From: a virus
Taxonomy: Duplodnaviria; Heunggongvirae; Uroviricota; Caudoviricetes
Length of the DNA: 64,000 nucleotides
Reading direction: 5' to 3' (one strand)
Virus record (IMG/VR): IMGVR_UViG_3300028887_000001
Span: 156,088 to 220,087 of that record
This document shows, one piece after another, positions 1,437-56,330 of the stretch. The translations under genes and the position numbers were made by a program. Position 1 is the stretch's first letter. Each line of letters opens with the position of its first letter. The notes under the pieces are model-generated. The model saw only the letters and a list, made by a program, of their open reading frames with translations, searched no databases and was not told where the DNA came from.

Positions 1437-1460
1437 CATTGCAAAAGTACTAAAAAAATC
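1437..1460 (-). promoter_or_regulatory. conserved phage promoter motif (TTTTAGTACTTTTGCAATG on the minus strand) carrying Bacteroides-type -7 box TAnnTTTG
   Basis: Forward cattgcaaaagtactaaaaaaatc lies about 20 nt upstream of the 1418 start; the same motif recurs at least 12 times in the window. Confidence 0.6.
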
Positions 1461-1539
1461 TGAATTAGGAAAAAAGTTTGATAAATTTGGTTAATTTTGA
1501 AAAAACAGTATATATTATTGTATAGACATAACATTATAT

Positions 1540-2988
1540 ATGATACCAAAAATAATACACTATTGTTGGATTAGTGGAGAAGAAAACATGCCAGAAGACA
1601 TCAAAGCCTGTGTTGAGAGTTGGCATAAATACCTTCCTGATTATGAGTTCATAAATTGGAATGACAAAAATTTTGACTGGAACATTTGTGAATTCACAAA
1701 ACACTGTAGGGAAAATAACTTATATGCATTCTGTTCTGACTATGTTAGGTTTTGGGCTCTTTACAATTATGGTGGCATATACCTAGATTGCGATGTGATG
1801 GTTTACAAATCGTTTGATGAGTTGCTTAATTTAAAAAGAATTTTAACAAAGGAAATATATTATAAAGAAAACAACTTTCCAGAGGCAGCAATAATGGGTT
1901 GTGAAAAGGGCGATGTGTTATTTGGTAAAGTTATTGAGTGGTATAATAAAACGAAAAAGAGGTTTGATTTAAATAAATTTGTTGTGTCTCCATATGTAAT
2001 GCGTAGCGTTATCGATAAAAATTACAAGGAAAAAGTTGTTTATTCCCTGGAAGATGTAAAAGATGATGAAAACAAGATATATTTCCTTGACGTTAACAAA
2101 TATTTCGATAGCGATAGTGAGGATGTTTTTGCCAAACATAATTTTAAAAATAGTTGGCACACCAATTTAATCAAAAATTTTCTTAAACACTCCAATTTCA
2201 AAATATTTTTATGCGCTCACAAACCGATTGAAAACTTTTTGCCAAGAAATAAAAGATATGTTATATTGGATGTAACAGGAAATGTTGATAACTCCTGCAA
2301 TGACAACTTTCATGAAATAATCGACATATCAAAAGATGAATTTGTTAAAACCCACAATGTTTGTTATAGTGAAGGGGCTGCAATGAGATATTTATATAAG
2401 CACCCAGATTTAATACCAGATTATATTGGATTCGGCCACTATAGAAGGGTTTTCGTAAGATTTATCGGAATGGAAAACTCAATGCCTAAATTTATTGACA
2501 GGAAAAATGCGATAATAAATACTCCGCTTGATTTCACTACAGATTTTAGGATAAATAACAAGGCTGTGGCGAGATACGACCACCCAAGAGAGGATGTAAA
2601 CGCTTTGATTGAGTGTGTAAAAGAAGTTGCTCCAGAATATTGGGACTCTTTTAATGAGTTTCTTAAAGATAAAAATGGTTATTACTGCAACTGCTTTGCG
2701 ATGAAAAAGGATGACTTCCTTGAAATGTGTGAATTCTGTTTCAGGGTACTTGATAGATTCGATGAGAAACAGGGTTATAAAAACAATGAAGATGTGAGAA
2801 AACACATGGAAAAACTAAGTCAGGAAAAGAAATTAAATATAGATAAGGTAGATTGGCAGTCAAGACTTCAGGGTTTTCTGCTAGAATATTTAACAGACAC
2901 CTTTTATCGCCATAAATCTTGGATTGATGGGTGTTGTAAATCACAGGCAAAAATGCCAATTATGAGTGTAAATACAAATATTTTATGA
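1540..2988 (+). CDS. two-domain glycosyltransferase: N-terminal GT32-like DXD sugar-binding domain plus C-terminal putative galactofuranosyltransferase-like domain
   Basis: N-terminus IIHYCWISGEE...YAFCSDYVRFWALYNYGGIYLDCDVMV is the classic Gly_transf_sug / capsular polysaccharide synthesis DXD region. The C-terminal roughly 250 aa (FLCAHKPIENF...GFGHYRR) is shared with its paralog. glf is immediately downstream. Confidence 0.75.
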   Translation: MIPKIIHYCWISGEENMPEDIKACVESWHKYLPDYEFINWNDKNFDWNICEFTKHCRENNLYAFCSDYVRFWALYNYGGIYLDCDVMVYKSFDELLNLKRILTKEIYYKENNFPEAAIMGCEKGDVLFGKVIEWYNKTKKRFDLNKFVVSPYVMRSVIDKNYKEKVVYSLEDVKDDENKIYFLDVNKYFDSDSEDVFAKHNFKNSWHTNLIKNFLKHSNFKIFLCAHKPIENFLPRNKRYVILDVTGNVDNSCNDNFHEIIDISKDEFVKTHNVCYSEGAAMRYLYKHPDLIPDYIGFGHYRRVFVRFIGMENSMPKFIDRKNAIINTPLDFTTDFRINNKAVARYDHPREDVNALIECVKEVAPEYWDSFNEFLKDKNGYYCNCFAMKKDDFLEMCEFCFRVLDRFDEKQGYKNNEDVRKHMEKLSQEKKLNIDKVDWQSRLQGFLLEYLTDTFYRHKSWIDGCCKSQAKMPIMSVNTNIL

Positions 2989-4478
2989 TACCAAAAATAA
3001 TACACTACTGCTGGATAAGCAGTGAAGAAAACATGCCGGAAGACATTAAATCGTGTTTGGAAAGCTGGAAGAAACATCTTCCTGATTATGAGTTCATAAA
3101 CTGGAATGATGAACGATTTGATTGGAACATTTGTGAATTCACAAAATGGCATAGAGAGCATAATGAGTATGCGTTTTGTTCAGACTATGTTAGGTTTTGG
3201 GCTCTTTACAATTATGGCGGCATATACCTGGATTGTGATGTGATGGTTTACAAATCATTCGATGAATTGCTTAATTTAAAAAGAATTCTAACAAAGGAAT
3301 GGACTTACCGTTACAACAACTATCTTGATGCTGCGATTATTGGATGTGAACAGGGGGATGATGCTTTCAAAAAGATTTTAGACTATTATAATAATTGTGA
3401 CGAGCACTTTACAACTGAAAAAAATACAATTGCTCCCCTTATTATGAAATGGTGCTGGTCTGATTATAAATTTAATCCAATCAATAAACTATCAAATGAA
3501 ATTAAGGATGACAAAACAATAAACATATTGAATGTTGATAAATATTTCAGCGTTTCTAGTGATGAATGCTTTGCACAGCATTGCTTTAAGGGAAGTTGGT
3601 GGAGAAAAACTGAAAAAATAAACTGCCTCAAGACAGATAATATAAAAGTGTTCTTGTGCGCCCATAAGCCAATTGAAAACTTCATCCCAGAAGATAAGAA
3701 ATATGTTATTTTGGCTCAAAATAAGGGTATTTCCTATAAAACAAATGAAATCATCGACATATCAGATGATGAGTTTACAAAATCACACAACGTCTGCTAT
3801 GGTGAAGGGTGTGGTATGAGATATTTGTACAACCACCCAGAATTGATACCAGACTACATTTGCTTTGGGCATTACAGGAGATATTTCACGGAATTTGTTG
3901 GGTGTGAGAGGTTTATGCCGCAAATAATTGACAGTTGTGGCGCAATTGTAAAGAAACCGTTTGACCACACAAATGACGATAGGATTTATAACAAAAGGGG
4001 TATGTATTTTGACCACCCAAGTGATGATATAGACATGTTTATTAAATGTGTTAAATATGTTGCGCCAGAGTATTGGTATACATTCAACGACCTTTTAAAT
4101 GACCATTATCAATATGCTTGCAATATCTTCGCAATGAAAAAAGAAGATTTTCTTGAGATGTGCGAAATGTGTTTCAGTGTTCTTGACCATTTTGACAAGC
4201 TTCAGGGTTATAAAAACAATGAGGATGTGAAGAAGAAAATGGAGAAGAATCCATATATACATAACATGCCATTTGGTTTTGAGTGGCAAATCAGGCTAGA
4301 AGGGTTCCTGTTGGAATGGTTAACAGAACTTTATTATAGGCAAAAGTTTGGCGTTGAAAATTGCTATAAAGCAGAAGTTGGTAATTTATATAACAACAAC
4401 GTTAACATAGATGAAAAATATACTAGTAATAGGAAGTGGCTTAACTGGGGCTACACTAGCCAAAAAGCACAAGGATAA
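2985..4478 (+). CDS. paralogous two-domain glycosyltransferase (tandem duplicate of 1540..2988)
   Basis: The first roughly 105 aa are about 90% identical to the upstream gene at protein and DNA level; the C-terminal domain has diverged. ATGA start/stop overlap at 2985..2988. Confidence 0.75.
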   Translation: MIPKIIHYCWISSEENMPEDIKSCLESWKKHLPDYEFINWNDERFDWNICEFTKWHREHNEYAFCSDYVRFWALYNYGGIYLDCDVMVYKSFDELLNLKRILTKEWTYRYNNYLDAAIIGCEQGDDAFKKILDYYNNCDEHFTTEKNTIAPLIMKWCWSDYKFNPINKLSNEIKDDKTINILNVDKYFSVSSDECFAQHCFKGSWWRKTEKINCLKTDNIKVFLCAHKPIENFIPEDKKYVILAQNKGISYKTNEIIDISDDEFTKSHNVCYGEGCGMRYLYNHPELIPDYICFGHYRRYFTEFVGCERFMPQIIDSCGAIVKKPFDHTNDDRIYNKRGMYFDHPSDDIDMFIKCVKYVAPEYWYTFNDLLNDHYQYACNIFAMKKEDFLEMCEMCFSVLDHFDKLQGYKNNEDVKKKMEKNPYIHNMPFGFEWQIRLEGFLLEWLTELYYRQKFGVENCYKAEVGNLYNNNVNIDEKYTSNRKWLNWGYTSQKAQG

Positions 4479-5442
4479 TGGCGATAGAGTAACGGTTATA
4501 GAAAAGAGAGACCATTTTGGTGGAAACATATACACCGAAAATATTGATGGTATATGTGTTCATAAATATGGTGCACACATATTCCACACTTCTGACAAAG
4601 AGGTGTGGGATTTTGTTAACCAATTTGTGCATTTCAATAACTACAGGCATCAGGTTAAAACAAGATATAATGACAAGCTCTATAGTCTGCCAATAAACAT
4701 GAACACATTCAATGAGTTCTTTAACATATCAAATCCAGATGATATAAAACAGGAACACATTGATAAGATTCACGAGGCTCTTTTCCATGGATATAGTTCA
4801 AAACAATGGGGGAAATCAATCGATGAAATAAATAAAGATGTGTTCAAGAGGTTACCATTAAGAAAAACATTCAACAATGATTATTTTGATGATACATACC
4901 AGGGTATTCCCATTGAAGGATATACAAGCTTAATAGAATCACTATTACAGGGCACAAAAAGAAAAACCGGAATAAAGGTAACCAAAGATTTTGATTTCTC
5001 CACATATGATATAATATATAATACAGGGCCAATTGATGAATTCTTTAATTATGAACTTGGAAAGCTTGAATATAGAAGCCTTGAATTCAGCACAAAGAAA
5101 TTAGAAAAGCAATACTATCAAGATTTTGCTGTCATTAATGAAGCCAATTATGAAGTCAAATATACAAGAACGATTGAACATAAACACTTCAATGATACAA
5201 ACAAAAGCTACACAATAGTAACAAAAGAATACCCAAGACCATATAATGGAGACAATGAACCTTATTATACAATTAATGATGATAAGAATAACACATTATA
5301 TGAAAAATACAAGGAATTGGCAAAGGAAAGGTTTCCTAATATGATATTTTGTGGCAGACTTGGCGCTTATAAGTATTATGACATGGACGATGCAATAAGA
5401 GAAGCATTAAACATATTCTCAAAACAAAAAGAGCAACTTTAA
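4411..5442 (+). CDS. glf: UDP-galactopyranose mutase
   Basis: ILVIGSGLTGATLA...IEKRDHFGGN...HKYGAHIFHT...LPINMNTFNEFF...YQGIP..GYT...YTGPIDEFFNYELGKLEYRSLEF...EPYY.INDDKN...GRLG.YKYYDMD is collinear with bacterial Glf along its full length. Confidence 0.9.
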   Translation: MKNILVIGSGLTGATLAKKHKDNGDRVTVIEKRDHFGGNIYTENIDGICVHKYGAHIFHTSDKEVWDFVNQFVHFNNYRHQVKTRYNDKLYSLPINMNTFNEFFNISNPDDIKQEHIDKIHEALFHGYSSKQWGKSIDEINKDVFKRLPLRKTFNNDYFDDTYQGIPIEGYTSLIESLLQGTKRKTGIKVTKDFDFSTYDIIYNTGPIDEFFNYELGKLEYRSLEFSTKKLEKQYYQDFAVINEANYEVKYTRTIEHKHFNDTNKSYTIVTKEYPRPYNGDNEPYYTINDDKNNTLYEKYKELAKERFPNMIFCGRLGAYKYYDMDDAIREALNIFSKQKEQL

Positions 5443-6787: not shown

Positions 6788-7948
6788 TTATTTATTAATT
6801 GCTGCTTGTTCTCTTTGGCTTAATAATCTTGTTTCAACATTTTCTGGGTTGAAATCGTTTACATCCGTTACATCACAATAAGACATCGCTGATGCGAGGA
6901 AATCATTCATGTTTTCTGTCCACTTTTTTATAGATGTCTTACATTCAAGTATAACTTCCTTACCTTCTGAAGTCCTCTTCTTCTTCCCAAATAAATCAAT
7001 TTGGCCCTGCTTTGATGCCATGCCATAAAACCTTTTATAGAGTTTTTTTACTTGAATTGAACAGACTGGTTCATTCTTAGCATCCAATGATGTAATTTGG
7101 AAAACACCATCATTTTCTTCAATGACAGTATTTTTATCAAATTGGTCAACAAAATTCTTTTCACGAAGCTCAACATGACCTACTGTTGAAAAATAGAATG
7201 TTTCTGCACAAGATTCAATTAGGGAAGATAACAGCCCACCAATCATAACATAATCTGCGCCAAGTGCTAAAGCTTTATTTACATCATCATAATTCCTAAT
7301 ACCACCATCAGCAATAATCTTGGTCACACACTTATAAGATGTAAAAAGGTTCTGAATATCAGATTCAACTTCCTTCTTTTGCTTATATGTTTCATTTATT
7401 AGGGTTGCAATACCCATATGAACCCCTAAATTACTTGCAGAAAGGCAACCAGCGCCAGAACCAATGGCCAACCTAACATAATCAATCCCAGCCCTACAAT
7501 ATTCCTTATATGTTTCTGGATTTGAAATGTTTCCAGTCATCAAAATAATGTTATTGCCATATTTTTCCTTTGCTTGCTTTGCAATTTCAAAAATTGTTGT
7601 TAAATTGCCCTTTGCCAGGTCAATACAAATTTTTGTTTCTGGGTTAACAGATTCATTTTCACTGACAAAAGTTTTGAATTCATTTAATGAATATGAAACC
7701 CAAATACCGCTTTTTACTAATTCATTTCTTTTTTCTATATTTACTGTTCTTGGTATAATTGGAATTATGCCATTGTCTTTAAACACCTTGTAGTTTTTTT
7801 CATTTAATACAGAACTCATTGGTGCTGTGAATATCGGCAACATTCCGTCCTTCTTTGTGTTACACTCAGAACGATGTTCAACATCACTTGTTATGGCGTC
7901 GAGTATGCATACATCACCATATCCATAAGTCATTTCTTCTTTAAACAT
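6788..7948 (-). CDS. IMP dehydrogenase / GMP reductase family TIM-barrel protein
   Basis: PIFTAPMSSV, the GSGAGCLSAS loop containing the catalytic Cys, and ADGGIRNYDDVNKALALGADYVMIGG match IMPDH/GuaC signature regions. Confidence 0.65.
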   Translation of the reverse strand: MFKEEMTYGYGDVCILDAITSDVEHRSECNTKKDGMLPIFTAPMSSVLNEKNYKVFKDNGIIPIIPRTVNIEKRNELVKSGIWVSYSLNEFKTFVSENESVNPETKICIDLAKGNLTTIFEIAKQAKEKYGNNIILMTGNISNPETYKEYCRAGIDYVRLAIGSGAGCLSASNLGVHMGIATLINETYKQKKEVESDIQNLFTSYKCVTKIIADGGIRNYDDVNKALALGADYVMIGGLLSSLIESCAETFYFSTVGHVELREKNFVDQFDKNTVIEENDGVFQITSLDAKNEPVCSIQVKKLYKRFYGMASKQGQIDLFGKKKRTSEGKEVILECKTSIKKWTENMNDFLASAMSYCDVTDVNDFNPENVETRLLSQREQAAINK

Positions 7949-7971: not shown

Positions 7972-7993
7972 TGGCAAAGATACTAAAAAAAAA
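7972..7993 (-). promoter_or_regulatory. conserved promoter motif (minus-strand TTTTAGTATCTTTGCC)
   Basis: Forward tggcaaagatactaaaaaaaaa lies about 25 nt upstream of the 7948 start. Confidence 0.55.
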
Positions 7994-9634: not shown

Positions 9635-11119
9635 TTAACATGTATAGAATTTAAATCCTTTAATATCCCCAATGAATGTACCTGCAAAGTTCTCTTCAAT
9701 TGGATATATCTTTGTTGGGTTCAACATATAATCTGGCATTATGGTCTCTGCCAATCCTTGTGTTCCTCCACCAAGTGATATATTATATGCAACACCTTCT
9801 TGTTTCTCTTTTATTTCATCCAGAGCATGCAGATTTAATTTTGGTAACTCTGATGTAATGTACTTCAATTTTCCATTAACATAGAACATAATTCTTATTC
9901 CGGTTTCTGATGCCCTTATTTTTACCCTTATTTTCGTCCATACGTCTTCTTTTATGATTCCTGGGTATGAATTACCACTGAGCACCTCATAATGCCACTG
10001 TGGGTCTCCTGAACAGCTTTTAACAAGGAATCTGTACCCTATTGAGCCATCATCATTAATCACGAACGCCAATGCATTATTATAAATGTCATTATATAGG
10101 GTTTGTTCGTCATATGTGTCTGTGTAACCACTTTCAAGTTTATCTATATTATGAACGGTATAACCTGTTGGTGTCCTATCCATATATAGGAAGAGGTTTC
10201 CATTAAATCCATTCTTTTTTGTCTTAAGAACAACAACCTCATTACCTTCATAATTGTGAATTGTGATTCCGCTTGATGTTCTGTCAAATATTAAAAACTT
10301 GTTGTCACTTTCAATATAATCATCATTTGGCGAGAATATATCAAACCCATTTGATGTTTCATATGTTTGTGCGCTTAATTCAATGTCATCATCAACCAAA
10401 TCAAACACAGAATCACCCTCTTCCTCTAATTCGCAATCGCCAAATGTGGTTCCACTTATTTCCAGGCCTTCATAAAGGTAAACCCATTTGTTTTCTGCTC
10501 TTGTACCAATATAGAAGAATATACCCTTATTGTTGGGGTGTGCATCATTTAATGTATTCGTACTTTCTGGTTCATAATTAACCTTTCTTAAATCAAATTC
10601 AAGGTTCCATTCCCCATTTATCTCGCTTGGTAATATGGCATAATCATCATCACTTCTAAAGAAACCCTGATAAAAGCCACCATTTAACTTTATGCTACCA
10701 TCCTCGTTTATTGATGTTGGATAATCATACAGTTGTGTGTTTCCGGTAACGGCATGCAAGTGAAGTCTTGTGTCCCCACTCTCTATCTCATAAGTGCTGT
10801 GAGTGTATATCTGATAGAACTCCCTGTTGGTTATTCTGTCTTTTATGTAAGATATTAAACCGTTATCAACACCAGTGTAACCAATGTTTTCCAATTTTAA
10901 TCCGTGACTACAAGCCTCACTATAAAAATAATCTTCTAAACTCGTTAATTCATTCCCACTTAAACACACATCATTTGTCGTGTCAATAACAACACTTGCA
11001 CAGCTTTCTGACAACACATCGCCACAAGAGCCATGAGAATTTAAATGCATGTCCCAATAATCAGTCTCATCTATATGAGTAATGGAACGCCTTACGTTAT
11101 TTAGAGTATAGTTTGACAT
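9635..11119 (-). CDS. hypothetical protein (494 aa), possible virion or tail-associated protein
   Basis: Long ORF only 18 nt upstream of the 505-aa ORF on the same strand. Confidence 0.4.
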   Translation of the reverse strand: MSNYTLNNVRRSITHIDETDYWDMHLNSHGSCGDVLSESCASVVIDTTNDVCLSGNELTSLEDYFYSEACSHGLKLENIGYTGVDNGLISYIKDRITNREFYQIYTHSTYEIESGDTRLHLHAVTGNTQLYDYPTSINEDGSIKLNGGFYQGFFRSDDDYAILPSEINGEWNLEFDLRKVNYEPESTNTLNDAHPNNKGIFFYIGTRAENKWVYLYEGLEISGTTFGDCELEEEGDSVFDLVDDDIELSAQTYETSNGFDIFSPNDDYIESDNKFLIFDRTSSGITIHNYEGNEVVVLKTKKNGFNGNLFLYMDRTPTGYTVHNIDKLESGYTDTYDEQTLYNDIYNNALAFVINDDGSIGYRFLVKSCSGDPQWHYEVLSGNSYPGIIKEDVWTKIRVKIRASETGIRIMFYVNGKLKYITSELPKLNLHALDEIKEKQEGVAYNISLGGGTQGLAETIMPDYMLNPTKIYPIEENFAGTFIGDIKGFKFYTC

Positions 11120-11160
11120 ATGCCTATTTTATTATAAATATCAAATAGACAACATTATTA

Positions 11161-11390: not shown

Positions 11391-11445
11391 CGCTTTTAAA
11401 ATTTAAATTAATTATTTTATTCGAATATATAAATATCACTCTAAA

Positions 11446-12570
11446 TCAAAAACCAATTTTTGTTCGATTGTTTGTGTTTCCATTATCTTCAAGGAAATTG
11501 TATACATCACATAGTGGCATTGATTTTGCCAGTGACTTATCAATTGAGAGTTTTTCAAAGAGTTTTTCAACCTTTTCTTTCTCCAAATCCTTGAATTCGT
11601 ATTTAATCTTCATCCTACCCTTTCTGAGTATAGCCTTATCTATATTTTGCAGGTCTGTGTTAAATGTGCAGATGAACTTAAGCTTAAGGCTATCACCAAG
11701 AATTCCGTCAGAAATGTTTAGCAAACTTTGCATTGCTGGGTTGTGATGGTTCTCTCTTGGTTTGAGAAGACTTTCACTATCTTCCAAGACAAACACAGCA
11801 TTCTTACATGAGGAAATGTATTCGATAAACTCTGATGAGTCTACATATGCAAACATGCTTGAATCAATCCAGTAGAACATGACATCACTATTTGTCCCTA
11901 TTAAGTCCCTAATATAAGATGTCTTTCCAGTACCAGGCTTACCATGAAGAATCATTATGCAACTATCGTCCTGATGAATCAACTTATTAATCTTGTCGTT
12001 AATTGGCTTGAAATCATCATTGTAGTTCTCATCAATATTTCCCTTTGGTGTAATTTCCATGTACTTTGTCTCTATGTTTCCCCTTGAATTTCTCAAAACC
12101 CACCTAATTTGAGGTTTAAAATCCTTTTCAACCACGCAATCATATATCTCTTGTGGTATGTCCGGAGTATCCATGTAGAAAACACCATCGTAATATATAA
12201 ACTTATCATTGAAGACTAACTTCCTATCAAGCTTTGTCCTTCTATAATTGTATACCACAGAATCTGGGAACTTCTCGATTATCTTTTCAAGAGTTTTCTC
12301 CAAGTCAATATTCTGGGTCTTCTCACGGTATTCTTCTTCTGTACAATGACTATTGTATAAAGCCAAATCATCACTCTCTGTATAACCCTCAATATTTGTC
12401 GGGTCAATGTTATCGTAAATCCTGTCGCTCAACTGATTAAGATATGGTAACCTGCCAAAATGTTCTATTGCGAACTTTTCAACAACCATCTGGAAAATAT
12501 AACCAATTGTATCGTCACTCTTCCCGACCATCTCACCAATTCTCTTTCTTATGTCTTCAACATTCATCAT
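11446..12570 (-). CDS. AAA+ family ATPase
   Basis: Walker A ILHGKPGTGKTS, Walker B FVLEDSE, and arginine-finger-like KGRMKIK. Confidence 0.7.
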   Translation of the reverse strand: MMNVEDIRKRIGEMVGKSDDTIGYIFQMVVEKFAIEHFGRLPYLNQLSDRIYDNIDPTNIEGYTESDDLALYNSHCTEEEYREKTQNIDLEKTLEKIIEKFPDSVVYNYRRTKLDRKLVFNDKFIYYDGVFYMDTPDIPQEIYDCVVEKDFKPQIRWVLRNSRGNIETKYMEITPKGNIDENYNDDFKPINDKINKLIHQDDSCIMILHGKPGTGKTSYIRDLIGTNSDVMFYWIDSSMFAYVDSSEFIEYISSCKNAVFVLEDSESLLKPRENHHNPAMQSLLNISDGILGDSLKLKFICTFNTDLQNIDKAILRKGRMKIKYEFKDLEKEKVEKLFEKLSIDKSLAKSMPLCDVYNFLEDNGNTNNRTKIGF

Positions 12571-12589: not shown

Positions 12590-12612
12590 GGTGCAAAATT
12601 ACTAAAATTTTT
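12590..12612 (-). promoter_or_regulatory. conserved promoter motif
   Basis: Forward ggtgcaaaattactaaaattttt lies about 20 nt upstream of the 12570 start. Confidence 0.55.
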
Positions 12613-14503: not shown

Positions 14504-15184
14504 TTAATTTTCAAACCACCAAATTAATTCACTATTAATGCTAACCTTTAATTCCCCCATACTCTTCCACTCGTCCCAATAATCTTCAAGGTATTCGTCA
14601 TCAGACTTATGTATGTCACTGAAGAACTCATCAACATCTGATTCGTTTACTGGTTTAATAATAATGGAGGCGTCGCCATTACAAAACCTTACAATTTTAG
14701 CAGGAATTCCTTTATATTTGATTCTTCTCCCAACACAATTTTTATCGAATTCATATGAACACAAATCTAACGGGTGTTCTGGATATTCTGTCATTTTACA
14801 CTGTGCTTGAGCCACGCCATAGTACATATCCCTTGTTACGAACCTTTCAAATATCTCACCATTCCTTAAGATGTCAATTTGACACCTTGAAGAAGCCTCT
14901 GTTTCATCCCACTTTGTTTTTGATGTTGTTTTTTCAACAACCTTGAAACCCCATTCACAAGCAACACCATCGAATTGAATTAAGTTCTCATATGTTGGTT
15001 CCTCAAATCTAGGACATGCCCATGCATAGTCATGTCTACCACCTATTGAATGGTTATATTCACCATCGTCATCATATGCAAAAAACACCTTATAAGGTTC
15101 TCCATTTACCCTTGCATCCCAACTTAGTTCGTGCAAAACTTTCTTCAGGTCTGTGCTTTCATCTATAAGCCTTATTTCACTCAT
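14504..15184 (-). CDS. hypothetical protein (226 aa), translationally coupled to the Stealth-like gene
   Basis: ATGA start/stop overlap at 15181..15184 with the upstream gene. Confidence 0.45.
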   Translation of the reverse strand: MSEIRLIDESTDLKKVLHELSWDARVNGEPYKVFFAYDDDGEYNHSIGGRHDYAWACPRFEEPTYENLIQFDGVACEWGFKVVEKTTSKTKWDETEASSRCQIDILRNGEIFERFVTRDMYYGVAQAQCKMTEYPEHPLDLCSYEFDKNCVGRRIKYKGIPAKIVRFCNGDASIIIKPVNESDVDEFFSDIHKSDDEYLEDYWDEWKSMGELKVSINSELIWWFEN

Positions 15185-16098
15185 TGTTGTTCCAATATTT
15201 TAGTCATTAAATCTTCCAGAAGTGATTTTGTTTCTGAAACCATTTCTTGCGTTACCCACCATGCGTCATTAATACATTCAACATCGTTTAAGTAATTCAT
15301 TTTACCACCTAAAACGGATTTTAACCAATTATTTAATTCATCATCGCCAACACTTCTAAAACAAAATTTATATGGTAACTTTTCATCAAACACCAATTCA
15401 TTCTTCAAGCCATACATAAGATACAAGTCCATATTCATGTTATTAAAGTATCTTACCGTATGTAATGAACCCATTATAAACCTTTCATATTTGCAATAAC
15501 ATTCTTCACACAGAGATTTCGTCAGTGGCCTTAATGTGTGTTGTGTATAACAAACCTGTGAATAATCACTATTATTTGACCTCCTGTCATAAACCAAATT
15601 TGTTGCATTCGACATGTGTAGGTCATATAAACAATTGTTTGGGCATTTCTTCCAGTTGAAAGACGCTCTCGGCTTGCCATCCTTAAAGAAATATTCTTTG
15701 AACAATGGTTTCATTGGAATCATGTCATCATTTCCGTATATGAAGTATTCAGAAAGACCAGGTATTCTCCACATGAAAAGTTCAATACAAGCCGATGAGA
15801 AGGTTATATAGCCATTCGGCATGAATTCAGACTCATTAACCCTGATAATCCTACCGCTTGATTCATTAATCAATTTAATTGTAGAATCTGGGAGAACCTG
15901 AACGTCTTTACACACCAAATACACCTTATTTATAAAGTTAAGGTTTTTCAGTATCAATTTCAATGTTAGTGTTATGTCTATGTAGTTAGAATTCACATTA
16001 CTATTGTATTCCAGCCCAGTTACATTTTCATATAAATCACGAACATCATCATCGGAATAATCACAATAACTAATGATATAATCTATCGGTTTATCCAT
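15181..16098 (-). CDS. Stealth-family-like hexose-1-phosphoryl transferase candidate (capsule phosphotransferase-like)
   Basis: IDYIISYCDYSDDD (CR1-like), LKLILKNLNFINKVYLV (CR2-like) and FIYGNDDMIP (CR3 NDD-like) resemble the Stealth conserved regions from memory. Needs an HMM check. Confidence 0.4.
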   Translation of the reverse strand: MDKPIDYIISYCDYSDDDVRDLYENVTGLEYNSNVNSNYIDITLTLKLILKNLNFINKVYLVCKDVQVLPDSTIKLINESSGRIIRVNESEFMPNGYITFSSACIELFMWRIPGLSEYFIYGNDDMIPMKPLFKEYFFKDGKPRASFNWKKCPNNCLYDLHMSNATNLVYDRRSNNSDYSQVCYTQHTLRPLTKSLCEECYCKYERFIMGSLHTVRYFNNMNMDLYLMYGLKNELVFDEKLPYKFCFRSVGDDELNNWLKSVLGGKMNYLNDVECINDAWWVTQEMVSETKSLLEDLMTKILEQQ

Positions 16099-16115: not shown

Positions 16116-16140
16116 TGGTGCAAAATTACTATAATTTTTA
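16116..16140 (-). promoter_or_regulatory. conserved promoter motif
   Basis: Forward tggtgcaaaattactataattttta lies about 18 nt upstream of the 16098 start. Confidence 0.5.
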
Positions 16141-16232
16141 AAACTAAACAACAAAAACATAAATTATTTTTATCAAAATTGAAAATTTTTTAAAAAACCT
16201 TACTATTTATATATTACAATAAACTTTGTTGT

Positions 16233-16604
16233 ATGAAAAATAATGAAATTCGTTTAAGTGAACAGGAATTGTATTCTCTTATTAAAGAAAGTGTTATTGA
16301 AACATTGAATGAGGGTAAATGGTCTGATTATCTTAGTGCTGGTGCTCTTGGCCTTGGATTAGCTGGAAGTGCTGTTGGTACAATGGTTCAAGACCCAAAG
16401 TATAGTGATAACGTAGATATGCCTTCTCACGAAATCACGGTTCAACCTGGCGATGATGAAATTGAATTCGAAACAGACATTGAACCACAATACATTTCAT
16501 CAGAAGAGGATTTCTATGATAATGATGAATATGTTGGTGAAAGTAGGTTGTCAAACGCAATAGATAGAATTATAACAGAGGAAATTTCCAAGGTTCTTTC
16601 ATGA
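16233..16604 (+). CDS. hypothetical protein (123 aa) carrying the ESQL-type motif
   Basis: Contains SEQELYSLIKESVIETLNEG, similar to the motifs in 55654..56082. Confidence 0.45.
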   Translation: MKNNEIRLSEQELYSLIKESVIETLNEGKWSDYLSAGALGLGLAGSAVGTMVQDPKYSDNVDMPSHEITVQPGDDEIEFETDIEPQYISSEEDFYDNDEYVGESRLSNAIDRIITEEISKVLS

Positions 16605-19096: not shown

Positions 19097-19516
19097 TTAC
19101 ATAAATGGACAAGCATAAGGTATCTTGAGTGGGTCTACAGAACCATCGTATTGGCCTTCTGACCTATTCAATGACGTATCAACAACAACATCAATGCCAT
19201 ATTGCTTGTTTGGGCCATACAGTGAACGTGCTGTCATGACGTCTCTTGCAGCATAATCACAGTCATTACCGCCATCGTCAGTGTTAAATAAGCCAGACAT
19301 TTGGCTTCTAGGTTTTGTCATGTCAGGTACAATCCACCCATGACCAGCAAAATCACCTGTACCCTTACCTCTTTCGTCGCCATCTGCGAGAGCGTCTTTG
19401 TGTTGAGCGTTGTACTCGTTATTTGGGTTATAATCACTTCTACCCATTTGTTCATGACGAAGGTCAAGGGCTTCCTGTTCAAGATAGCTTTGTCCGTTTT
19501 CTTTAATTGTTGCCAT
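19097..19516 (-). CDS. hypothetical protein (139 aa)
   Basis: ORF. Confidence 0.4.
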   Translation of the reverse strand: MATIKENGQSYLEQEALDLRHEQMGRSDYNPNNEYNAQHKDALADGDERGKGTGDFAGHGWIVPDMTKPRSQMSGLFNTDDGGNDCDYAARDVMTARSLYGPNKQYGIDVVVDTSLNRSEGQYDGSVDPLKIPYACPFM

Positions 19517-19556
19517 ATTTTATGTTTTATAATTTTATTTATTATTATATAAATAG

Positions 19557-20418: not shown

Positions 20419-20421
20419 ATT

Positions 20422-24256: not shown

Positions 24257-24305
24257 GATATAATAAAGAAAAATAGAACTATTTATACTTAAAAAGCAAA
24301 ATATT

Positions 24306-34226: not shown

Positions 34227-34250
34227 CTTTTTAGTATCTTTGTAATGAAT
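34227..34250 (+). promoter_or_regulatory. conserved promoter motif in plus orientation (TTTTTAGTATCTTTGTAATG)
   Basis: Lies about 210 nt upstream of the next gene, so it may drive a leader or small RNA. Confidence 0.5.
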
Positions 34251-34461
34251 TTTTGAAAATAAATTATGAACACAAAAGCAATTTTGGAATAATTCTATTT
34301 ATATTATAATAACAGGCTATAAATGATTAATAAATTGAACCACATATATAATAGGTTCCAGCAATGATATAATTGTTAAATATTGTTAAGGAAAACAATA
34401 ATCTGGGGCCATAATTTGTGAGTTCCAGATTTTTTTTATAATTTTGCAAAAGTTTTTGGAT

Positions 34462-37056: not shown

Positions 37057-37083
37057 ATTGCTTATGTTATAACATATAAATAT

Positions 37084-45907: not shown

Positions 45908-46774
45908 TTAATAAAATCTTGCGTTAATTTCACTAATCATTGATTTCGAGCCCAATAATGAAGATAGTCTTTCAAACCAATGATTGCTAATATAATACTT
46001 GTTCTCAAGACATTCACATAACATTCCAATATTTTTTACTTCTCGCAAATTTCCACATTTTTCCATTTGTATTTTTTTGTTAAATCTTGGCTCTAAATAC
46101 CACTTTAAGCAGATTGGATTAAAATCTATGTAATCAATATCACCACGAATAACCTTTGTCCACAAATCATAAAAGAAACCAGATTTCTTATTTGGACAAC
46201 TTGCAATTGTTATGTTTTTGCCAAATTTTAATATTTCTTTGACAATTTGTATTATTTCAAGTCCTCCCGTTTTATCACCCATGTCAAGAAATGCAGCATT
46301 GTCAATATAAATGTCATCACAATTAAAACCAATAGAAGATAAGGCATCAATATTTGAGAATACTATGTTTGTCTCCTTGTTACCATGAAAAATGTTTGTC
46401 TCTTTACTTTTAACATTATTAAATCCTATTATTTCATGACAATGATTTAATATATTCATTAACGTATTTTTGGCATTAGACGCTGCACTTATCGAGTTTG
46501 TAATAAACAACACACGATTAAAATTTTTTGTGCCATGTGTTATATCATATGCAATCTTAACCAGCATCAGTGTCGTTGTTCCCGCTTGTCTATACGATTT
46601 AATTACATTAAACTTATTATCCTTCAGGTTATTTAGCAAATCTATTTGTTGTTTACTTAAGGACGTAAAACACCCGCCATTTCCAACAACCAACGAATTG
46701 GCTACATCTTCACACCACTTGATATAATCAACACACAATTCATTCTTTCCTATTTCTACTAACATATCAAGCAA
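45908..46774 (-). CDS. P-loop-like ATPase candidate (deviant Walker A YRQAGTTT; Walker B DDIYIDNAAF), terminase-ATPase-like
   Basis: Motif resemblance only; at 288 aa it is too short for a full large terminase. Confidence 0.3.
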   Translation of the reverse strand: MLDMLVEIGKNELCVDYIKWCEDVANSLVVGNGGCFTSLSKQQIDLLNNLKDNKFNVIKSYRQAGTTTLMLVKIAYDITHGTKNFNRVLFITNSISAASNAKNTLMNILNHCHEIIGFNNVKSKETNIFHGNKETNIVFSNIDALSSIGFNCDDIYIDNAAFLDMGDKTGGLEIIQIVKEILKFGKNITIASCPNKKSGFFYDLWTKVIRGDIDYIDFNPICLKWYLEPRFNKKIQMEKCGNLREVKNIGMLCECLENKYYISNHWFERLSSLLGSKSMISEINARFY

Positions 46775-46961
46775 ATATTATTGCCATTATATAAGATATT
46801 GCACAACCAAGATAAAGTAATCCATATTTTCCCATTTCAACCCTACCTTCTTGTAGTGTAGCAACCTTGGCGATATCATAACAAACCTTCAGGATGTATA
46901 ATATTGACATCACAAGGACGAATATCTTTAAAAACCCAATAAAACTTAAAAACAATTCCAT
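46767..46961 (-). CDS. small two-transmembrane membrane protein (64 aa), holin-like candidate
   Basis: LSFIGFLKIFVLVMSILYIL and YLGCAISYIMAIIFA. Confidence 0.3.
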   Translation of the reverse strand: MELFLSFIGFLKIFVLVMSILYILKVCYDIAKVATLQEGRVEMGKYGLLYLGCAISYIMAIIFA

Positions 46962-47001
46962 TTTTCTTCTTTTTTAAAATATAAATATTTTCTAATATAA
47001 A

Positions 47002-49286: not shown

Positions 49287-49421
49287 AGCTTTAGTATTTT
49301 AATAGTTTATTTTCAAAGATGCATAGACCTCATTTCTGAAAACCAATATGCAAAGTCATTTTCTAACATATAAATATCTAATTTTCCTAAAAATGTGTTA
49401 CTTTTATGCAAAAATTATTCA

Positions 49422-51259: not shown

Positions 51260-52021
51260 TCATTTAAACAGAAAATCCGCCTCTGAAATTGAGAAGACTT
51301 CTTCTCTCATGGTGTTTATTGCTTTGATTTTTATTTGCCTAACCCTTTCAGTACTAAGTTTTAGGTCAGAACTTATTTCTTCAAGACTGTGACCATCACC
51401 TCCATCATCAATCCCGAAATACTTCATAACAACAACCCTTTCCCTTTCACTCAGACTGGCCAATAATTTTTTTACAACAAAATTCTTTTGCTCATTCTCT
51501 TCCTTTATTTCACAAGAGTTTATCCTATCATCGGCAATGTCATTGCTTTCATAATAAAAATCACTATCATCATCGGTAACTGATACATTTTCAATTGTCT
51601 GGTTTTCTGCCGGAAATTCATCATCAAAATTCACCTCATTCTTTTCTTCATTCATCTTTTCGTCAATAGCAGCCATCATCCTTTGTCTTATCCACCAGGC
51701 TGCATATGTGTAAAATTTAACGTCCTGAGATAAATCAAACTTTTCAATGGCCCTAATAATTCCGGTATTACCTTCAGAAATCAAATCACCAATATCAACA
51801 CCACTTCCACGAAACTTCTTTGCTGTGTCAAAAACAAACCTTAAATTGGCTGTTATTATTTTGTTTCTGGCATCAATATCACCATCCTTTGCTTTAACAA
51901 GCAATTCCCTCTCAACATCTTTAGGTATTGGTGAGTACCTTTTCAATTCCTGATAATATGTTTTTACACTTTCGGTAAAATCATTGTTTCCAACACTTCT
52001 GTTTATGTCATTGTTAATCAT
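51260..52021 (-). CDS. sigma-70 family RNA polymerase sigma factor (regions 2 and 4)
   Basis: LRFVFDTAKKF, LISEGNTGIIRAIEKFD, KFYTYAAWWIRQRM (region 2), and C-terminal EISSDLKLSTERVRQIKIKAINTMR (region 4 HTH). Confidence 0.8.
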   Translation of the reverse strand: MINNDINRSVGNNDFTESVKTYYQELKRYSPIPKDVERELLVKAKDGDIDARNKIITANLRFVFDTAKKFRGSGVDIGDLISEGNTGIIRAIEKFDLSQDVKFYTYAAWWIRQRMMAAIDEKMNEEKNEVNFDDEFPAENQTIENVSVTDDDSDFYYESNDIADDRINSCEIKEENEQKNFVVKKLLASLSERERVVVMKYFGIDDGGDGHSLEEISSDLKLSTERVRQIKIKAINTMREEVFSISEADFLFK

Positions 52022-54471
52022 TTTTTAGTTGTTTTTGTACTCTTCTTATTAACTCTCTTTTTAGGCTGTTTTTCTATTACTTTTTCAACCTTTTTGCTTG
52101 TGTTTCTAATTTGTTGCAAACTTGAAACACCGTTTGTCTTTGTCACGGTAACAATATGTTCGTGCCAATCCCTAACATCTTCTATATGTGTTATGTTGAA
52201 AATGAAATCATAATCTTCCAATATCCTTTCATACAAAAGTCTCATGTTGTCATAATTGACATTTGCAACCCTTCCAAGAATCTCATCAAAAACAAGGAAA
52301 TTCATTCTTGATATTGTTGAAACTCTCGATAGTGCACTTCTAAGAGCCAAAGCAGAAGCCGTTCTTTCAAAACCACTACCAGAATCAAGTGTCTGAACAA
52401 GACCATTCCTAATCAAATTAAAGGTAACCTCATTCTTGGTGTTAATATCGACATTTACTGAGAAGTCACAAACATCATCAAGCAATTGTGATATTATCTC
52501 ATTAACAACTGGTAACATTTCCCTTAAAATCATCTTCGTTACACCATCCTTACCAACCATTTCAAGGTAAATCTTCCAATTCCTATTCAGGTTTTCGTCC
52601 TTATCGTAATCTTTCAATATCTTTTCCCTCTTTTCCTTCTCTTCTGTGTAAGTTTTAACATTAGCCTTATTGGTACTCAAAGAAATGAGATTTTTGTCTC
52701 TTATTTCGCGTTTTGTTTTCAGATTACCCTTAATAAGGTTAATTTCTATATCCAATTTGTTATTCTGGTCAATTGCTTCAGAATTCTCGTTGTATTTCTT
52801 CTTTTTATTGGTTAAATTCTCATAATTCTTTAATAAAAGTTCTATTTTGGAAGATAATGCTGATTGTGATGCATTTAAATTGTTCAATGTATCATAATTC
52901 TCCTTATTCTTCTTCATTGACTCAATCTTTTCTTTAAGTTTCTTAATCTTATCGGCAACACCCTTTCCCTTATTTGCCAATTCTTCCAACTCGATTTCCT
53001 TCTCTTTTATTTTCTTTGAATTGTCAACATCTTTCAGTTTTGCACCGCAAGTTGGGCAGAATTCACCCTTCTTTAATGCGTCAATAGTTGACCTTACCAG
53101 TTTATAATCAGCGCCAATATTCGCACGTTCTGTTTCTAGCTCGTTCTTTTCCTTCTCTGCTGCGTCATATTCCTCCTTTGAGAAATCAACTTCACCAATT
53201 TCGTCAATCTTCCTCTTATTTTCGTTAAATTCGGCCCTCTTTTTCTTTCCCTCTTCTTTTGTGTCTGTTATATTTTTTTCTAATGTAGTTATATCCAGAG
53301 ACATTATATCTTTATCAATTGTCTTCTTGCTTTCTGTTAATTTTGTCTGATTATCTTCCAGTTCCTTTATTTCTACGTCAAGCTTCTTGTTAGACTTTTC
53401 CAAATCAGAGTTTTCCTTCTCCTTGATTTTTAATTCTTCATTAAATGCAGCAATTTCGTCGTTTAAATCCTCCCTATTATATTTGTATATCGTAAGATTC
53501 TGTTTCAATTCTTTAAACCTGTCATTGGCAACTTTAAATTTCTCCTCCAATGGTAACAAACCAATCCACCTTGATAGAAGGACACCCCTATTCGTTGGTG
53601 TATCATCTATAAGTGCATCAAGATTCTTTCCGGTGATACACATCATAAGGTCAAAATCCTTCTCATTGCCAATTGCCTCACGAATAATCTTGTTGGTTTC
53701 TCTAACGTCTTGCCCATTTTCCTCAACATATTCGGAAAGTTCTTCAAGCGTATCACCAATCTTCCTATAAAACTCAGCCTTCTGTGTTGTTCTGCTCTTT
53801 GACGTTCTTTTTTCGAGTGCTGGCCTTGTCAGTGTCCTTTTTATGATATAATCACACCCATCAATGCTAATACAAGCCTCTGCACATAACTGCGTTTCTT
53901 CTGGAAGCGTGTTATTGAACAAATCCTCTAATCTTGAATACTTTCCTGATTTACCAAACAAAATAAAATGAAGAAGGTCTACAGCAAATGTTGTTTTTCC
54001 GCTTTGATTTGCTGGGTCACCATTCAAAAGAACCAAACCACGAAGGGTTGTAAAATCAAAACTGTTGTCACCACCATAGGATTCGAAATTAGACCACTTA
54101 ACCCACTTTATCGAGAACTTTCTATACTTATCAAAAACCTCATAATCAATCTTTGAATTGATTTCGTTATCAATGGACTCTATAATATCCATGTCATATT
54201 CACCCTTATGATATTGTTCAAGATATTTTTTAAACAATTCTTTGTGATTTTCCGGATTCTGTATTTCTGCAACAGTTTTTCTTGAAAAAACACAGTCTTC
54301 ATCATTATCGTCTGGTGTTATGAATTTATATATCACATCAACATCATCCTTTGATTTTCCATACTTCTTTGCCACAAGTGATTTTATCTCATTCACCTTC
54401 TCTTGTGTGTAATCATATGGTAAAACATTCCACTGTACCTTGATTTTTGCTTTTTCTCCAACTTTTATCAT
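52018..54471 (-). CDS. sbcC: SbcC/Rad50-family SMC-like ATPase
   Basis: N-terminal Walker A GDPANQSGKTT, long coiled coil, zinc hook CPTCG, and C-terminal signature/Walker B LVFDEILG. Confidence 0.8.
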   Translation of the reverse strand: MIKVGEKAKIKVQWNVLPYDYTQEKVNEIKSLVAKKYGKSKDDVDVIYKFITPDDNDEDCVFSRKTVAEIQNPENHKELFKKYLEQYHKGEYDMDIIESIDNEINSKIDYEVFDKYRKFSIKWVKWSNFESYGGDNSFDFTTLRGLVLLNGDPANQSGKTTFAVDLLHFILFGKSGKYSRLEDLFNNTLPEETQLCAEACISIDGCDYIIKRTLTRPALEKRTSKSRTTQKAEFYRKIGDTLEELSEYVEENGQDVRETNKIIREAIGNEKDFDLMMCITGKNLDALIDDTPTNRGVLLSRWIGLLPLEEKFKVANDRFKELKQNLTIYKYNREDLNDEIAAFNEELKIKEKENSDLEKSNKKLDVEIKELEDNQTKLTESKKTIDKDIMSLDITTLEKNITDTKEEGKKKRAEFNENKRKIDEIGEVDFSKEEYDAAEKEKNELETERANIGADYKLVRSTIDALKKGEFCPTCGAKLKDVDNSKKIKEKEIELEELANKGKGVADKIKKLKEKIESMKKNKENYDTLNNLNASQSALSSKIELLLKNYENLTNKKKKYNENSEAIDQNNKLDIEINLIKGNLKTKREIRDKNLISLSTNKANVKTYTEEKEKREKILKDYDKDENLNRNWKIYLEMVGKDGVTKMILREMLPVVNEIISQLLDDVCDFSVNVDINTKNEVTFNLIRNGLVQTLDSGSGFERTASALALRSALSRVSTISRMNFLVFDEILGRVANVNYDNMRLLYERILEDYDFIFNITHIEDVRDWHEHIVTVTKTNGVSSLQQIRNTSKKVEKVIEKQPKKRVNKKSTKTTKK

Positions 54472-54477: not shown

Positions 54478-54750
54478 TTAGTCTGTATTTTTAACTGTTA
54501 TTTTTCTTTTCTTTCTCACAATCTTTGGTTCTTCCGTTTTCGTATCTCCACTTACTTCGGCGTCAGTTTCTTTCGGTTTTATTTCACCATTCTGGCGCTT
54601 TACGTTATCACCAGGAGATAACCCGTATCTTTCAATATTGAATCCGGTTAATAAACATTTGTATTTGAATTCATCAACATCAGATATTTCATTAAGAGAA
54701 CAATAATCCTCTATTGCTTCATTTAATTCTTTTTCCTTCGTTAATTTCAT
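54478..54750 (-). CDS. hypothetical small protein (90 aa)
   Basis: ORF with a promoter motif 19 nt upstream. Confidence 0.4.
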   Translation of the reverse strand: MKLTKEKELNEAIEDYCSLNEISDVDEFKYKCLLTGFNIERYGLSPGDNVKRQNGEIKPKETDAEVSGDTKTEEPKIVRKKRKITVKNTD

Positions 54751-54766
54751 ATCTAATTCTAAAAAT

Positions 54767-54790
54767 CATTGCAAAAATACTAAAATTATC
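54767..54790 (-). promoter_or_regulatory. conserved promoter motif
   Basis: Forward cattgcaaaaatactaaaattatc. Confidence 0.55.
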
Positions 54791-54863
54791 CGATATAATA
54801 AACAAAATATTGAATTATTTTAATTTTTTTATATATATTATTATAAATCTTAACAAAAGTATA

Positions 54864-55619
54864 ATGACACAAGAAGGACAAAATGTATGGATGGCACTAG
54901 ATGTTAGTACAGCATGCATAGGAATCACAATATTGGTTGATGATGGTAGTGAATATGGCAAAATAGCAGAAATGACACACATATCACCAAAAATACCATC
55001 AAAAATTAAGGGAATTGAAGCATTATTCTTAAAAAAACAACAATTCCAACAATTCATTAGGGGGTTCTCAAAATACCCAATAGACAAGGTTGTTATTGAA
55101 GAACCACTATTGTCATCAAATAACCAAAATACAGTGGCAACACTCCTTAGATTCAATGGAATGATAAGTGATTGTATCTATAATGAACTTAAAATTGTCC
55201 CAATCTACATTTCAAGCTACGAAGCAAGGGAATATTCATTCCCGGAACTAATGGCCATCAGGAAGTACGGGAAAGATGAAAACATATATAAAGCATCAAA
55301 GATTGTCTCCAATATAAAAAACAACAATTATACATTATTTGGTAGTTACCCATGGACTATTGACAAGAAAAGCCTCTTACACGAAAAAGTCAGCAATCTA
55401 TTCCCAGAAATACAGTGGGTTTATGATAAAAACGGAGAACTTAAAAAAGAAAACTTTGACGCGACAGACTCATATGTTGCGTGTCTTGGACAAATAAACA
55501 AAGAAAGACATGGAGAACTTGAGTTTAAATCAGATAATATTCAAGTCGAAGATAATAAGGTTGAATATGATGTCCTTTATTGGGATAGAAAAGAACATAG
55601 AATAACATACTTATCATAA
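54864..55619 (+). CDS. RuvC-like Holliday junction resolvase
   Basis: WMALDVSTACIGITIL (Asp), VVIEEPLL (Glu) and C-terminal DATDSYVACLGQI (Asp/Asp) align with RuvC catalytic positions. Start moved to the ATG at 54864. Confidence 0.55.
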   Translation: MTQEGQNVWMALDVSTACIGITILVDDGSEYGKIAEMTHISPKIPSKIKGIEALFLKKQQFQQFIRGFSKYPIDKVVIEEPLLSSNNQNTVATLLRFNGMISDCIYNELKIVPIYISSYEAREYSFPELMAIRKYGKDENIYKASKIVSNIKNNNYTLFGSYPWTIDKKSLLHEKVSNLFPEIQWVYDKNGELKKENFDATDSYVACLGQINKERHGELEFKSDNIQVEDNKVEYDVLYWDRKEHRITYLS

Positions 55620-56082: not shown

Positions 56083-56096
56083 TTTAATTATTTTTT

Positions 56097-56261
56097 ACCA
56101 ATTCAATAATGGGCTTTTCGGCTTATCTTCCAACTCATCCGATGTTGGGAAATACCCACCAATGTATTGCGCCCTAACACCTAATTCATTATACTCATAA
56201 TCGAGATGTTCCATTAGTTGATTCAAAACATCCTGGTCTGTAAACTTAATTTCTTCCATGA
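56097..56261 (-). CDS. possible small ORF (54 aa)
   Basis: Hand translation gives MEEIKFTDQDVLNQLMEHLDYEYNELGVRAQYIGGYFPTSDELEDKPKSPLLNW; below the ORF-track cutoff. Confidence 0.3.
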
Positions 56262-56303
56262 TAATAAAATTCTTTCTTATAAATATTGTCTATTTGAAAA
56301 AAA

Positions 56304-56330
56304 ATTAGTATTTTTGCACCGAAAAATGCA
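56304..56330 (+). promoter_or_regulatory. conserved promoter motif in plus orientation (TTAGTATTTTTGCACCG)
   Basis: Located about 10 nt upstream of the ATG at 56339. Confidence 0.55.

Follow-up and report, generated by a model that had tools for sequence, protein, structure and literature searches.

A stretch of 64,000 nucleotides from a Caudoviricetes phage (positions 156,088 to 220,087 of the IMG/VR record IMGVR_UViG_3300028887_000001), hereafter the window, carries an element of about 30 bases that is repeated on both strands ahead of genes. This element, called class 1 here, is probably the core of a set of strong promoters of the type read by the primary sigma factor of the Bacteroidota (sigma-ABfr), in a huge phage with a host from that phylum. 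Judged by its sequence, it carries every feature of a Bacteroidota sigma-A promoter: a -7 box, a TTG at -33, an intergenic location, and the right orientation. The promoter reading is well supported by sequence, placement, and comparison, and it makes class 1 a known kind of host-type promoter in a Bacteroidota phage, with no new mechanism. A second box, TATTTATA (class 2), heads other genes of the window.

The exact 16-mer TTTTAGTANNTTTGCA occurs six times in the window compared to 0.00 expected, and none of 100 dinucleotide-preserving shuffles contained any match. With up to two mismatches allowed, there are 15 matches against 2.4 expected. Thirteen of these are intergenic and oriented towards a gene, and a reading of the flanks groups them together; the other two, at 40200 and 62700, lie inside coding sequence and were set aside as chance. 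Scored by leave-one-out with a 30-column position matrix, the 13 sites reach 12-36 bits, and the mean best score over 50 Markov shuffles of the window was 11.6 bits. The matrix also contributes two weaker intergenic sites, 30307-30322 (17.5 bits) and 25823-25838 (9.5 bits), both on the minus strand. The “15 sites” referred to below are these 13 plus two, and a degenerate copy at 41876-41891 on the plus strand is counted apart. All of the sites listed in the original prediction exist, each within 0-5 nt of the position given for it; the “two copies” at 41880 are the good copy at 41904-41919 and the degenerate one, which has a 1-nt insertion in its box. That list lacked the plus-strand site at 34433-34448, besides the two weaker matrix sites.

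Over the whole window, the bare core TANNTTTG is just as frequent as expected (97 copies against 97), so the class-1 signal lies in the extended motif and its placement. An expectation-maximization motif search on the intergenic regions settled on A/T runs and was not informative, and k-mer enrichment over the whole window was swamped by coding repeats such as GATGGTGATG, a type of repeat that is itself over-represented in the window. Hexamer pairs of the sigma-70 type (TTGACA, 17 bp, TATAAT) are not enriched between 30000 and 45000, where 75 were found compared to 71.3 expected. Class 1 falls into subfamilies of near-identical copies, for example 24235 with 54770 and 16119 with 41904, and some copies have more than 30 nt in common.

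Positions within the element are counted from the predicted transcription start (+1), placed 5 nt past the G of the box, which puts the box at -12 to -5. The numbering follows PMC9723704, and the consensus TAHHTTTG and the box-to-start distance of 4-5 nt are from PMC6847099. The T and A at -12 and -11 and the TTTG at -8 to -5 are invariant in the 15 sites, and G never appears at -10 or -9. Upstream of the box, an A-rich stretch (-24 to -19) is followed by T at -18 to -15 (12-15 of the 15 sites), A at -14 (12 sites), and G at -13 (12 sites). Downstream of it are C at -4 and A at -3 (13 sites each), a purine at the predicted +1 (14 sites), and then A at +3 and T at +6 (13 sites each). The start region reads (G/A)AAAT, with AAAT-like sequence after the predicted +1 purine. 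The original prediction had taken the TAnnTTTG core for the Bacteroidota sigma-A -7 box, and all 15 sites agree, down to the TAHHTTTG form with its G-free middle. It had also noticed a TTTG about 20 bp upstream in several cases. A TTG, usually as TTTG, is indeed present 18-23 bp upstream of the TA in 10 of the 15 sites, compared to 14% of control intergenic positions, and in seven of the 15 the spacer is exactly 20 bp, which places the G of the TTG at -33.

The placement of the element is just as regular. All 15 matrix-supported sites are intergenic, with a gene start or an RNA gene no more than 45 nt downstream on the same strand. Start codons lie 13-40 nt, and mostly 19-25 nt, past the end of the 16-mer, compared to the figure of about 10-25 nt given originally. 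Most sites also precede a gene start, as had been proposed; the exceptions are 38760, which precedes a tRNA-like RNA, and 34229, which has only an 8-codon open reading frame (ORF) after it. The predicted leaders of the eleven sites with a clear coding gene are 19, 22, 19, 18, 18, 38, 23, 11, 23, 17, and 18 nt long, a range of 11-38 nt with a median near 19. In Bacteroides thetaiotaomicron, the most frequent leader length is 23 nt (PMC7366714), and the median in Flavobacterium psychrophilum is 24 nt (PMC9723704). Because the predicted lengths match these published values and are ordinary for Bacteroidota, the idea that the mRNAs would be almost leaderless is unsupported. The use of the motif for correcting over-extended ORF starts, on the other hand, held up well: starts move from 30306 to 30225 (which shortens the ORF 29767..30306 to 29767..30225), from 34444 to 34462, and from 41915 to 41945. 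The ORF 54714..55619 spans the promoter at 54770, and its start must therefore be later.

Comparison with related phages tells which parts of the element matter. Relatives were reached via homologs of the sigma factor encoded in the window, which gave syntenic 20-kb loci around the sigma gene in four genomes (L002, L005, L006, and L008), whose sigma factors are 77% (L002), 62%, 51%, and 45% identical to that of the window. The promoter of the unit of a small gene, SbcC, and sigma and the promoter of primase keep the box in all five genomes. In these orthologous boxes, there is a G before and a C or T after in every case (each of the 10 orthologous promoters that were compared has the G at -13), and the remaining sequence diverges. 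TTTTA survives only in the closer relatives, being lost in L006 and L008; the L008 version is TTTTTTTGTATATTTG(C/T), with a TTTG 19-20 bp upstream. As only these parts persist among the relatives, the functional core would be G-TAHHTTTG-Y plus the -33 element, and the rest of the 16-mer first proposed is, by this alignment, specific to this lineage.

The element acts on transcription rather than translation, since it precedes both mRNAs and a tRNA: in L002, TTTTAGTACTTTTGCA stands 11 nt before a genuine tRNA-Gln gene (Rfam tRNA model, 58.4 bits). Start codons in the window show no Shine-Dalgarno signal, as 6 of 84 genes have such a sequence compared to 8% of random 17-mers, and the DNA just ahead of them is A-rich. 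Both the lack of a Shine-Dalgarno sequence and the A-rich upstream region are expected in Bacteroidota (PMC6847099).

On the minus strand, the class-1 site at 1440..1455 is an exact copy of the motif, with a predicted +1 at 1437 and a 19-nt leader, and heads the gene 723..1418. The site at 7973..7988 (22-nt leader) heads 6788..7948, which codes for a protein with an IMP dehydrogenase/GMP reductase domain, together with downstream genes. An AAA ATPase gene (11446..12570) follows the site at 12592..12607, which has a TTTG spacer of 18 bp. The site at 16119..16134 (TTG spacer of 20 bp) heads 15181..16098 and the minus-strand genes beyond, and the one at 24235..24250 heads 23543..24214 and then a helicase gene (21761..23542). 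The weak site at 25823..25838, TTGTTATAATTTTGCG, has a TTTG spacer of 20 bp and heads 25618..25803. With its 38-nt leader, the site at 30266..30281 heads 29767..30225 and the genes for thymidylate synthase (28433..29512) and a ClpB-like ATPase (25903..28410), and the weaker tandem site at 30307..30322 lies 41 nt upstream of it. The site at 38760..38775 is ahead of a tRNA-Gln-like RNA, which has a hairpin and a T-run after it. The site at 54770..54785, whose box is kept in the four relatives, heads 54478..54750, an SbcC-like gene (52018..54471), and the sigma gene (51260..52021).

On the plus strand, the site at 30619..30634 (TTTG spacer of 19 bp) heads 30660..31157 and the plus-strand genes downstream. 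The site at 34229..34244, the one followed only by the 8-codon ORF, is not conserved in L002, and the site at 34433..34448, TTTTTATAATTTTGCA, is identical there and heads 34462..35010. The degenerate copy at 41876..41891, TAAATTTTG, was seen by eye, and its TTTG forms the -33 element of the next site, 41904..41919, which has an ortholog in L002 and heads a gene for an Fe-S oxidoreductase-like protein (41945..42829) and downstream genes. The last site, 56303..56318, heads 56339..56581 and the genes for primase (56563..57594) and a phosphoesterase (57591..58427), and its box is also kept in the four relatives. Between the divergent sites at 30266 (minus strand) and 30619 (plus strand) is a spacer of about 240 nt (30320-30560) made almost entirely of A/T in TATA-type repeats, which could be bent DNA or an origin-like region.

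The tRNA-like RNA behind the site at 38760 is a poor match to tRNA-Gln (38660-38732, minus strand), called by ARAGORN alone. Rfam at its gathering thresholds has no match in the window, and the site was not used as proof of a non-coding target. Further along the same strand, the tRNA-Gln that L002 has in full is represented at 37668-37700 by its 3' end alone, namely the T arm and acceptor strand. Where its 5' part should be, the window has (ATA)n repeats and an HNH endonuclease gene (37704-38594, minus strand) with its own TATTTATA box. This arrangement resembles a tRNA gene that was disrupted when a homing endonuclease inserted. The alternative of a single tRNA divided by an intron with the HNH gene was considered and rejected, because the acceptor stem of the upstream tRNA-like element is closed within that element, and the similarity between the downstream fragment and the L002 tRNA is limited to the 3' end.

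The original prediction expected that some genes would have a second promoter class without the class-1 motif, and such a class exists. A contrast of k-mers between intergenic and coding sequence revealed TATTTATA, of which the window has 22 copies compared to 9.2 expected, a count that no shuffle reached. Fourteen of the copies are intergenic, and at least 11 of these lie on the gene strand 13-37 nt before a start codon, usually 16-23 nt and exactly 18 nt in six. No conserved upstream element was found beside the copies in the window. All four relatives have the box too, in most cases 15-21 nt ahead of a start codon, and at orthologous positions as well. At four places (16.1, 24.2, 41.9, and 56.3 kb), a class-1 and a class-2 site form a divergent pair, and the pair beside primase is also found in L002 and L008. 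The genes behind class-2 boxes in the window include an HNH endonuclease, a terminase-like gene, and unknowns, and in L008 a TATTTATA box is ahead of an Amidase_3 (endolysin-type) gene.

The plus-strand boxes are those at 16204..16211 (21 nt before 16233..16604; divergent from class-1 site 16119), 24280..24287 (18 nt before 24306..24668; divergent from 24235), and 34296..34303. The box at 34296..34303 is ahead of a conserved non-coding stretch of about 130 nt (within 34296-34445) that is near-identical to 20411-20554 on the minus strand of L002, even though the two sigma factors are only 77% identical. The stretch ends in a terminator-like hairpin, CUGGGGCC...GAGUUCCAG, followed by U8, has only a 14-codon ORF inside, and folds with a z-score of -1.9, which makes it a candidate small RNA. 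On the minus strand, a box lies 13 nt before the start codon of 9635..11119 (11133..11140), 37 nt before a 59-codon ORF starting at 11390 (11428..11435), 31 nt before 19097..19516 (19548..19555), and 18 nt before 25239..25577 (25596..25603). The box at 30361..30368 is upstream of the tandem class-1 sites and has no clear gene start of its own. The box at 37075..37082, 18 nt before 35314..37056, comes directly after a terminator hairpin, a layout that is orthologous in L002, and the HNH endonuclease gene follows its box (38611..38618) by 16 nt. The remaining boxes are at 41838..41845 (23 nt before 41083..41814; divergent from 41904), 46980..46987 (18 nt before 46767..46961, with the terminase-large-subunit-like gene 45908..46774 next), 49369..49376 (with an uncertain downstream start), and 56278..56285 (18 nt before 56095..56259; divergent from 56303). 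Four intergenic regions ahead of genes (16960-17044, 20662-20722, 32423-32525, and 51152-51259) have neither box, and those at 20662 and 51152 have TAATATTTATTATATATTA-like sequence in common. These regions may hold degenerate class-2 sites or a third class.

The window encodes a sigma-70-family factor of the RpoD/RpoS type (51260..52021, minus strand), as seen from Pfam matches to regions 2 and 4, matches in NCBIfam and PDB, and the family alignment. It has regions 1.2, 2, and 4, with an acidic linker instead of a clear region 3. The identical protein is on record on contigs of 0.2-1 Mb, and homologs are numerous down to 42% identity, some of them on contigs of up to 411 kb. Because of these large sigma-bearing contigs, the phage is placed in an undescribed family of very large phages, which comprises uncharacterised, huge Bacteroidota phages of the gut and rumen. 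Lak megaphages match the sigma in region 2 only, and no Bacteroides phage is among the 147 records that match it. DAC19 (L011, MT074139.1), a Bacteroides phage isolated on B. thetaiotaomicron, is thus absent from them. The lone match in the genome collection is a distant chromosomal sigma-A of Saprospiraceae (L010), located beside rpsO and pnp. The consensus of the phage sigma family has only NLRF and SYAVWW in common with this Bacteroidota sigma-A, and since this sharing is too weak, the specificity of the phage sigma is not assigned from its sequence.

Near-identical DNA was not found among GenBank phages. The closest relatives of the helicase, at 38% identity, are in the ~179-kb Bacteroides phages DAC16-23 and SJC03, with many Flavobacterium phages next, and a helicase search of viral contigs found no relatives. 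The window also encodes phosphoesterases, glycosyltransferases, the HNH endonuclease, and a fragment resembling the terminase large subunit. Two tandem paralogous glycosyltransferases on the plus strand (1540-2988 and 2985-4478), each with a DXD sugar-binding region and DUF4422, are unusual phage cargo; upstream of the pair, at 1492, is a plain TAATTTTG box without the extended motif. A 1285-residue ORF (58455-62312, minus strand) matches nothing in Pfam or PHROG and has orthologs of 1286-1477 residues in all relatives.

These findings fit best with a cascade of the classical kind. Soon after infection, the class-1 sites would be bound by host RNA polymerase holoenzyme that contains the primary sigma of the host. 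The resulting mRNAs would have short leaders (11-38 nt) and would cover genes for replication, repair, and nucleotide metabolism; an RNA gene would be transcribed as well, and so would the unit with the phage sigma. Hints that the host holoenzyme reads class 1 are the lack of Shine-Dalgarno signals, the closest helicases being those of Bacteroides and Flavobacterium phages, and the similar promoters of DAC19, a phage absent from the sigma matches. The phage sigma would then probably redirect the host core enzyme to the TATTTATA promoters, which would head packaging-type, lysis-type, and other genes later in infection. Several observations weigh against parts of this scheme. Five of the 15 class-1 sites have no TTG at the proper spacing, though the -33 element is weak in Flavobacterium too (PMC6847099). 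The flanks are kept tighter than the published host consensus demands, and an extra factor or recent copying of promoter cassettes could account for this. The phage sigma has both regions 2 and 4 and could read the two-part class 1, and class 2 lacks an upstream element. The assignment of class 2 to late genes draws on few annotated genes, and the distant Saprospiraceae match of the sigma does not identify the host.

The main alternative view is that the phage's own RpoD-like sigma reads class 1. It would have retained host-like -7/-33 specificity, and the G at -13, the TTTT at -18, and the CA at -4/-3 would make the sites specific to the phage. In that case, the unit that holds the sigma gene would reinforce itself, and TATTTATA would belong to a different factor. 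Regions 2 and 4 suit a two-part promoter, NLRF and SYAVWW occur in both the family consensus and the chromosomal Bacteroidota sigma-A, the G at -13 is present in 10 of 10 orthologous promoters, and the sigma gene lies inside a class-1 unit. However, DAC19 is not among the sigma matches and yet has very similar TAHHTTTGCA repeats, and binding by the host enzyme is to be expected anyway, given a class-1 core identical to the host consensus. In addition, TATTTATA is present in all four sigma-bearing relatives, with no such placement at gene starts in the first 50 kb of DAC19, and the phage sigma factors SPO1 gp28 and phiEco32 gp36 read motifs that differ from those of their hosts (PMC13401047, PMC8948821). 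On balance, this view is rather unlikely. Its more specific form is unlikely as well: the extended box would be the preferred target of a minimal RpoD-like sigma (regions 1.2, 2, and 4) that evolved from a Bacteroidota primary sigma. If true, it would mean that a phage sigma takes over host-type promoters via a few extra contacts and feeds back positively on its own unit.

The conserved flanks TTTTAG and GCAnnGAAAT could instead be the site of a phage repressor or activator laid over a host-type promoter, switching the whole class together. The flanks are kept beyond the published consensus, and near-identical subfamilies such as 24235 with 54770 and 16119 with 41904 would fit such a site. This explanation is very improbable, as the motif when read by eye has no dyad symmetry, the TTTTA part is not kept in L006 and L008, and neither an AT-rich -18 motif nor a purine start is unusual for a promoter (PMC6847099). 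That the copies are inert remnants of a dispersed repeat, a chance cluster, or a translation-initiation signal is hardly credible. In favour of it, more than 30 nt are common to some copies, and the start codon follows at a fairly constant distance. Against it, the observed count was reached in 0 of 100 shuffles, the copies are strictly oriented and placed, the box survives at orthologous sites whose flanks have diverged, and the element precedes a tRNA gene in L002.

Reading class 1 as host-type promoters leaves the understanding of how such promoters work unchanged. What it gives is a transcription map drawn at the level of sequence for part of an unstudied phage family, with about 15 host-type promoters, about 14 of the second class, corrected gene starts, and divergent pairs. 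Pairing the phage sigma with TATTTATA offers a model, open to testing, of how transcription may switch over time in a phylum with non-textbook transcription. The class-1 elements are also candidate parts for engineering in Bacteroides and Prevotella, where strong and compact promoters are of use, as is the case with the phage promoter P_BfP1E6.

Among known systems, class 1 is closest to the sigma-ABfr promoters, which are summarised in later work as a TTTG at -33 and a TAnnTTTG at -7 (Bayley 2000, via PMC7366714, PMC6847099, and PMC9723704). The -7 box is identical, a TTG or TTTG lies about 20 bp upstream across an AT-rich spacer, which measures about 19-21 bp in the known type, the -18 region is AT-rich, and the leaders are short and without a Shine-Dalgarno signal. 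In Flavobacterium johnsoniae, the -7 box has been refined to TAHHTTTG, with AT-rich motifs centred at -18 and -28 (PMC6847099), and the 15 phage sites have the same lack of G at -10 and -9. Unlike chromosomal promoters, the copies in this phage genome are far more uniform, and they add the G at -13, the CA at -4/-3, and the start region (G/A)AAAT, with start sites that are predicted.

Phage promoters built on the host consensus have been met before in this phylum. The first 50 kb of DAC19 has a repeated element of its own, TTTTGCAgACTTTAAC.GAAATCTTTcgTACCTTTGCAGCGTAAAAAGGGA, at four places. The element is unannotated, about 50 nt long, ends in TACCTTTGCAGCGTAAAAAGGGA, has TTTTGCA upstream, and occurs at 3001, 4929, 8051, and 48147 (at least four copies). 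Like class 1, these repeated TACCTTTGCA promoters end in TAHHTTTG-CA and exist as several near-identical copies per genome, whereas their upstream flanks differ and the class of TATTTATA is not seen in those 50 kb. Because no Bacteroides phage is among the sigma matches, the DAC19 promoters are presumably read by the host holoenzyme. This bears on the suggestion in the original prediction that the conserved flanks mark a phage-specific class, which holds only in part. G at -13, C or T at -4, and usually A at -3 do persist across the phage family, but the CA after TTTG is also found in the unrelated DAC19, the AT-rich -18 region is known in Flavobacterium, and TTTTA is lost in the distant relatives. 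P_BfP1E6, a Bacteroides phage promoter, is described as exceptionally strong and constitutive in uninfected Bacteroides, with UP elements and the -7 consensus (10.1101/2025.03.18.644028). Compared by that description, it is likewise a phage promoter on the host consensus that is active with host polymerase alone. Given DAC19 and P_BfP1E6, sets of host-type promoters that are near-identical and near-consensus recur in Bacteroides phages.

Class 2 also has likenesses in phages of other hosts. The late promoters of T4 have the sequence TATAAATA and are read by gp55. Like them, class 2 is a single 8-bp A/T box near the start, without an upstream element. The gene-strand box TATTTATA, however, is the reverse complement of TATAAATA, and the sigma of the window is RpoD-like with a region 4 rather than gp55-like. 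A T4-type late promoter was rejected for class 2, as the intergenic TATAAATA copies sit opposite the gene strand. Another parallel is with the sigma cascades of other phages. In SPO1, host sigma-A is used early, followed by gp28 and gp33/34 (PMC13401047), and phiEco32 and 7-11 have cascades with phage-encoded sigma factors (PMC12276001, PMC8948821). The host phylum and the motifs differ, and here the temporal order and the assignment of the sigma are inferred. As in those phages, the early promoters would follow the host consensus, the phage sigma gene belongs to the putative early unit, and the second class is a single conserved box without a -35-like element. The layout of a sigma cascade is thus present in the window: host-consensus promoters head the replication/nucleotide and sigma units, and a distinct motif heads the others.

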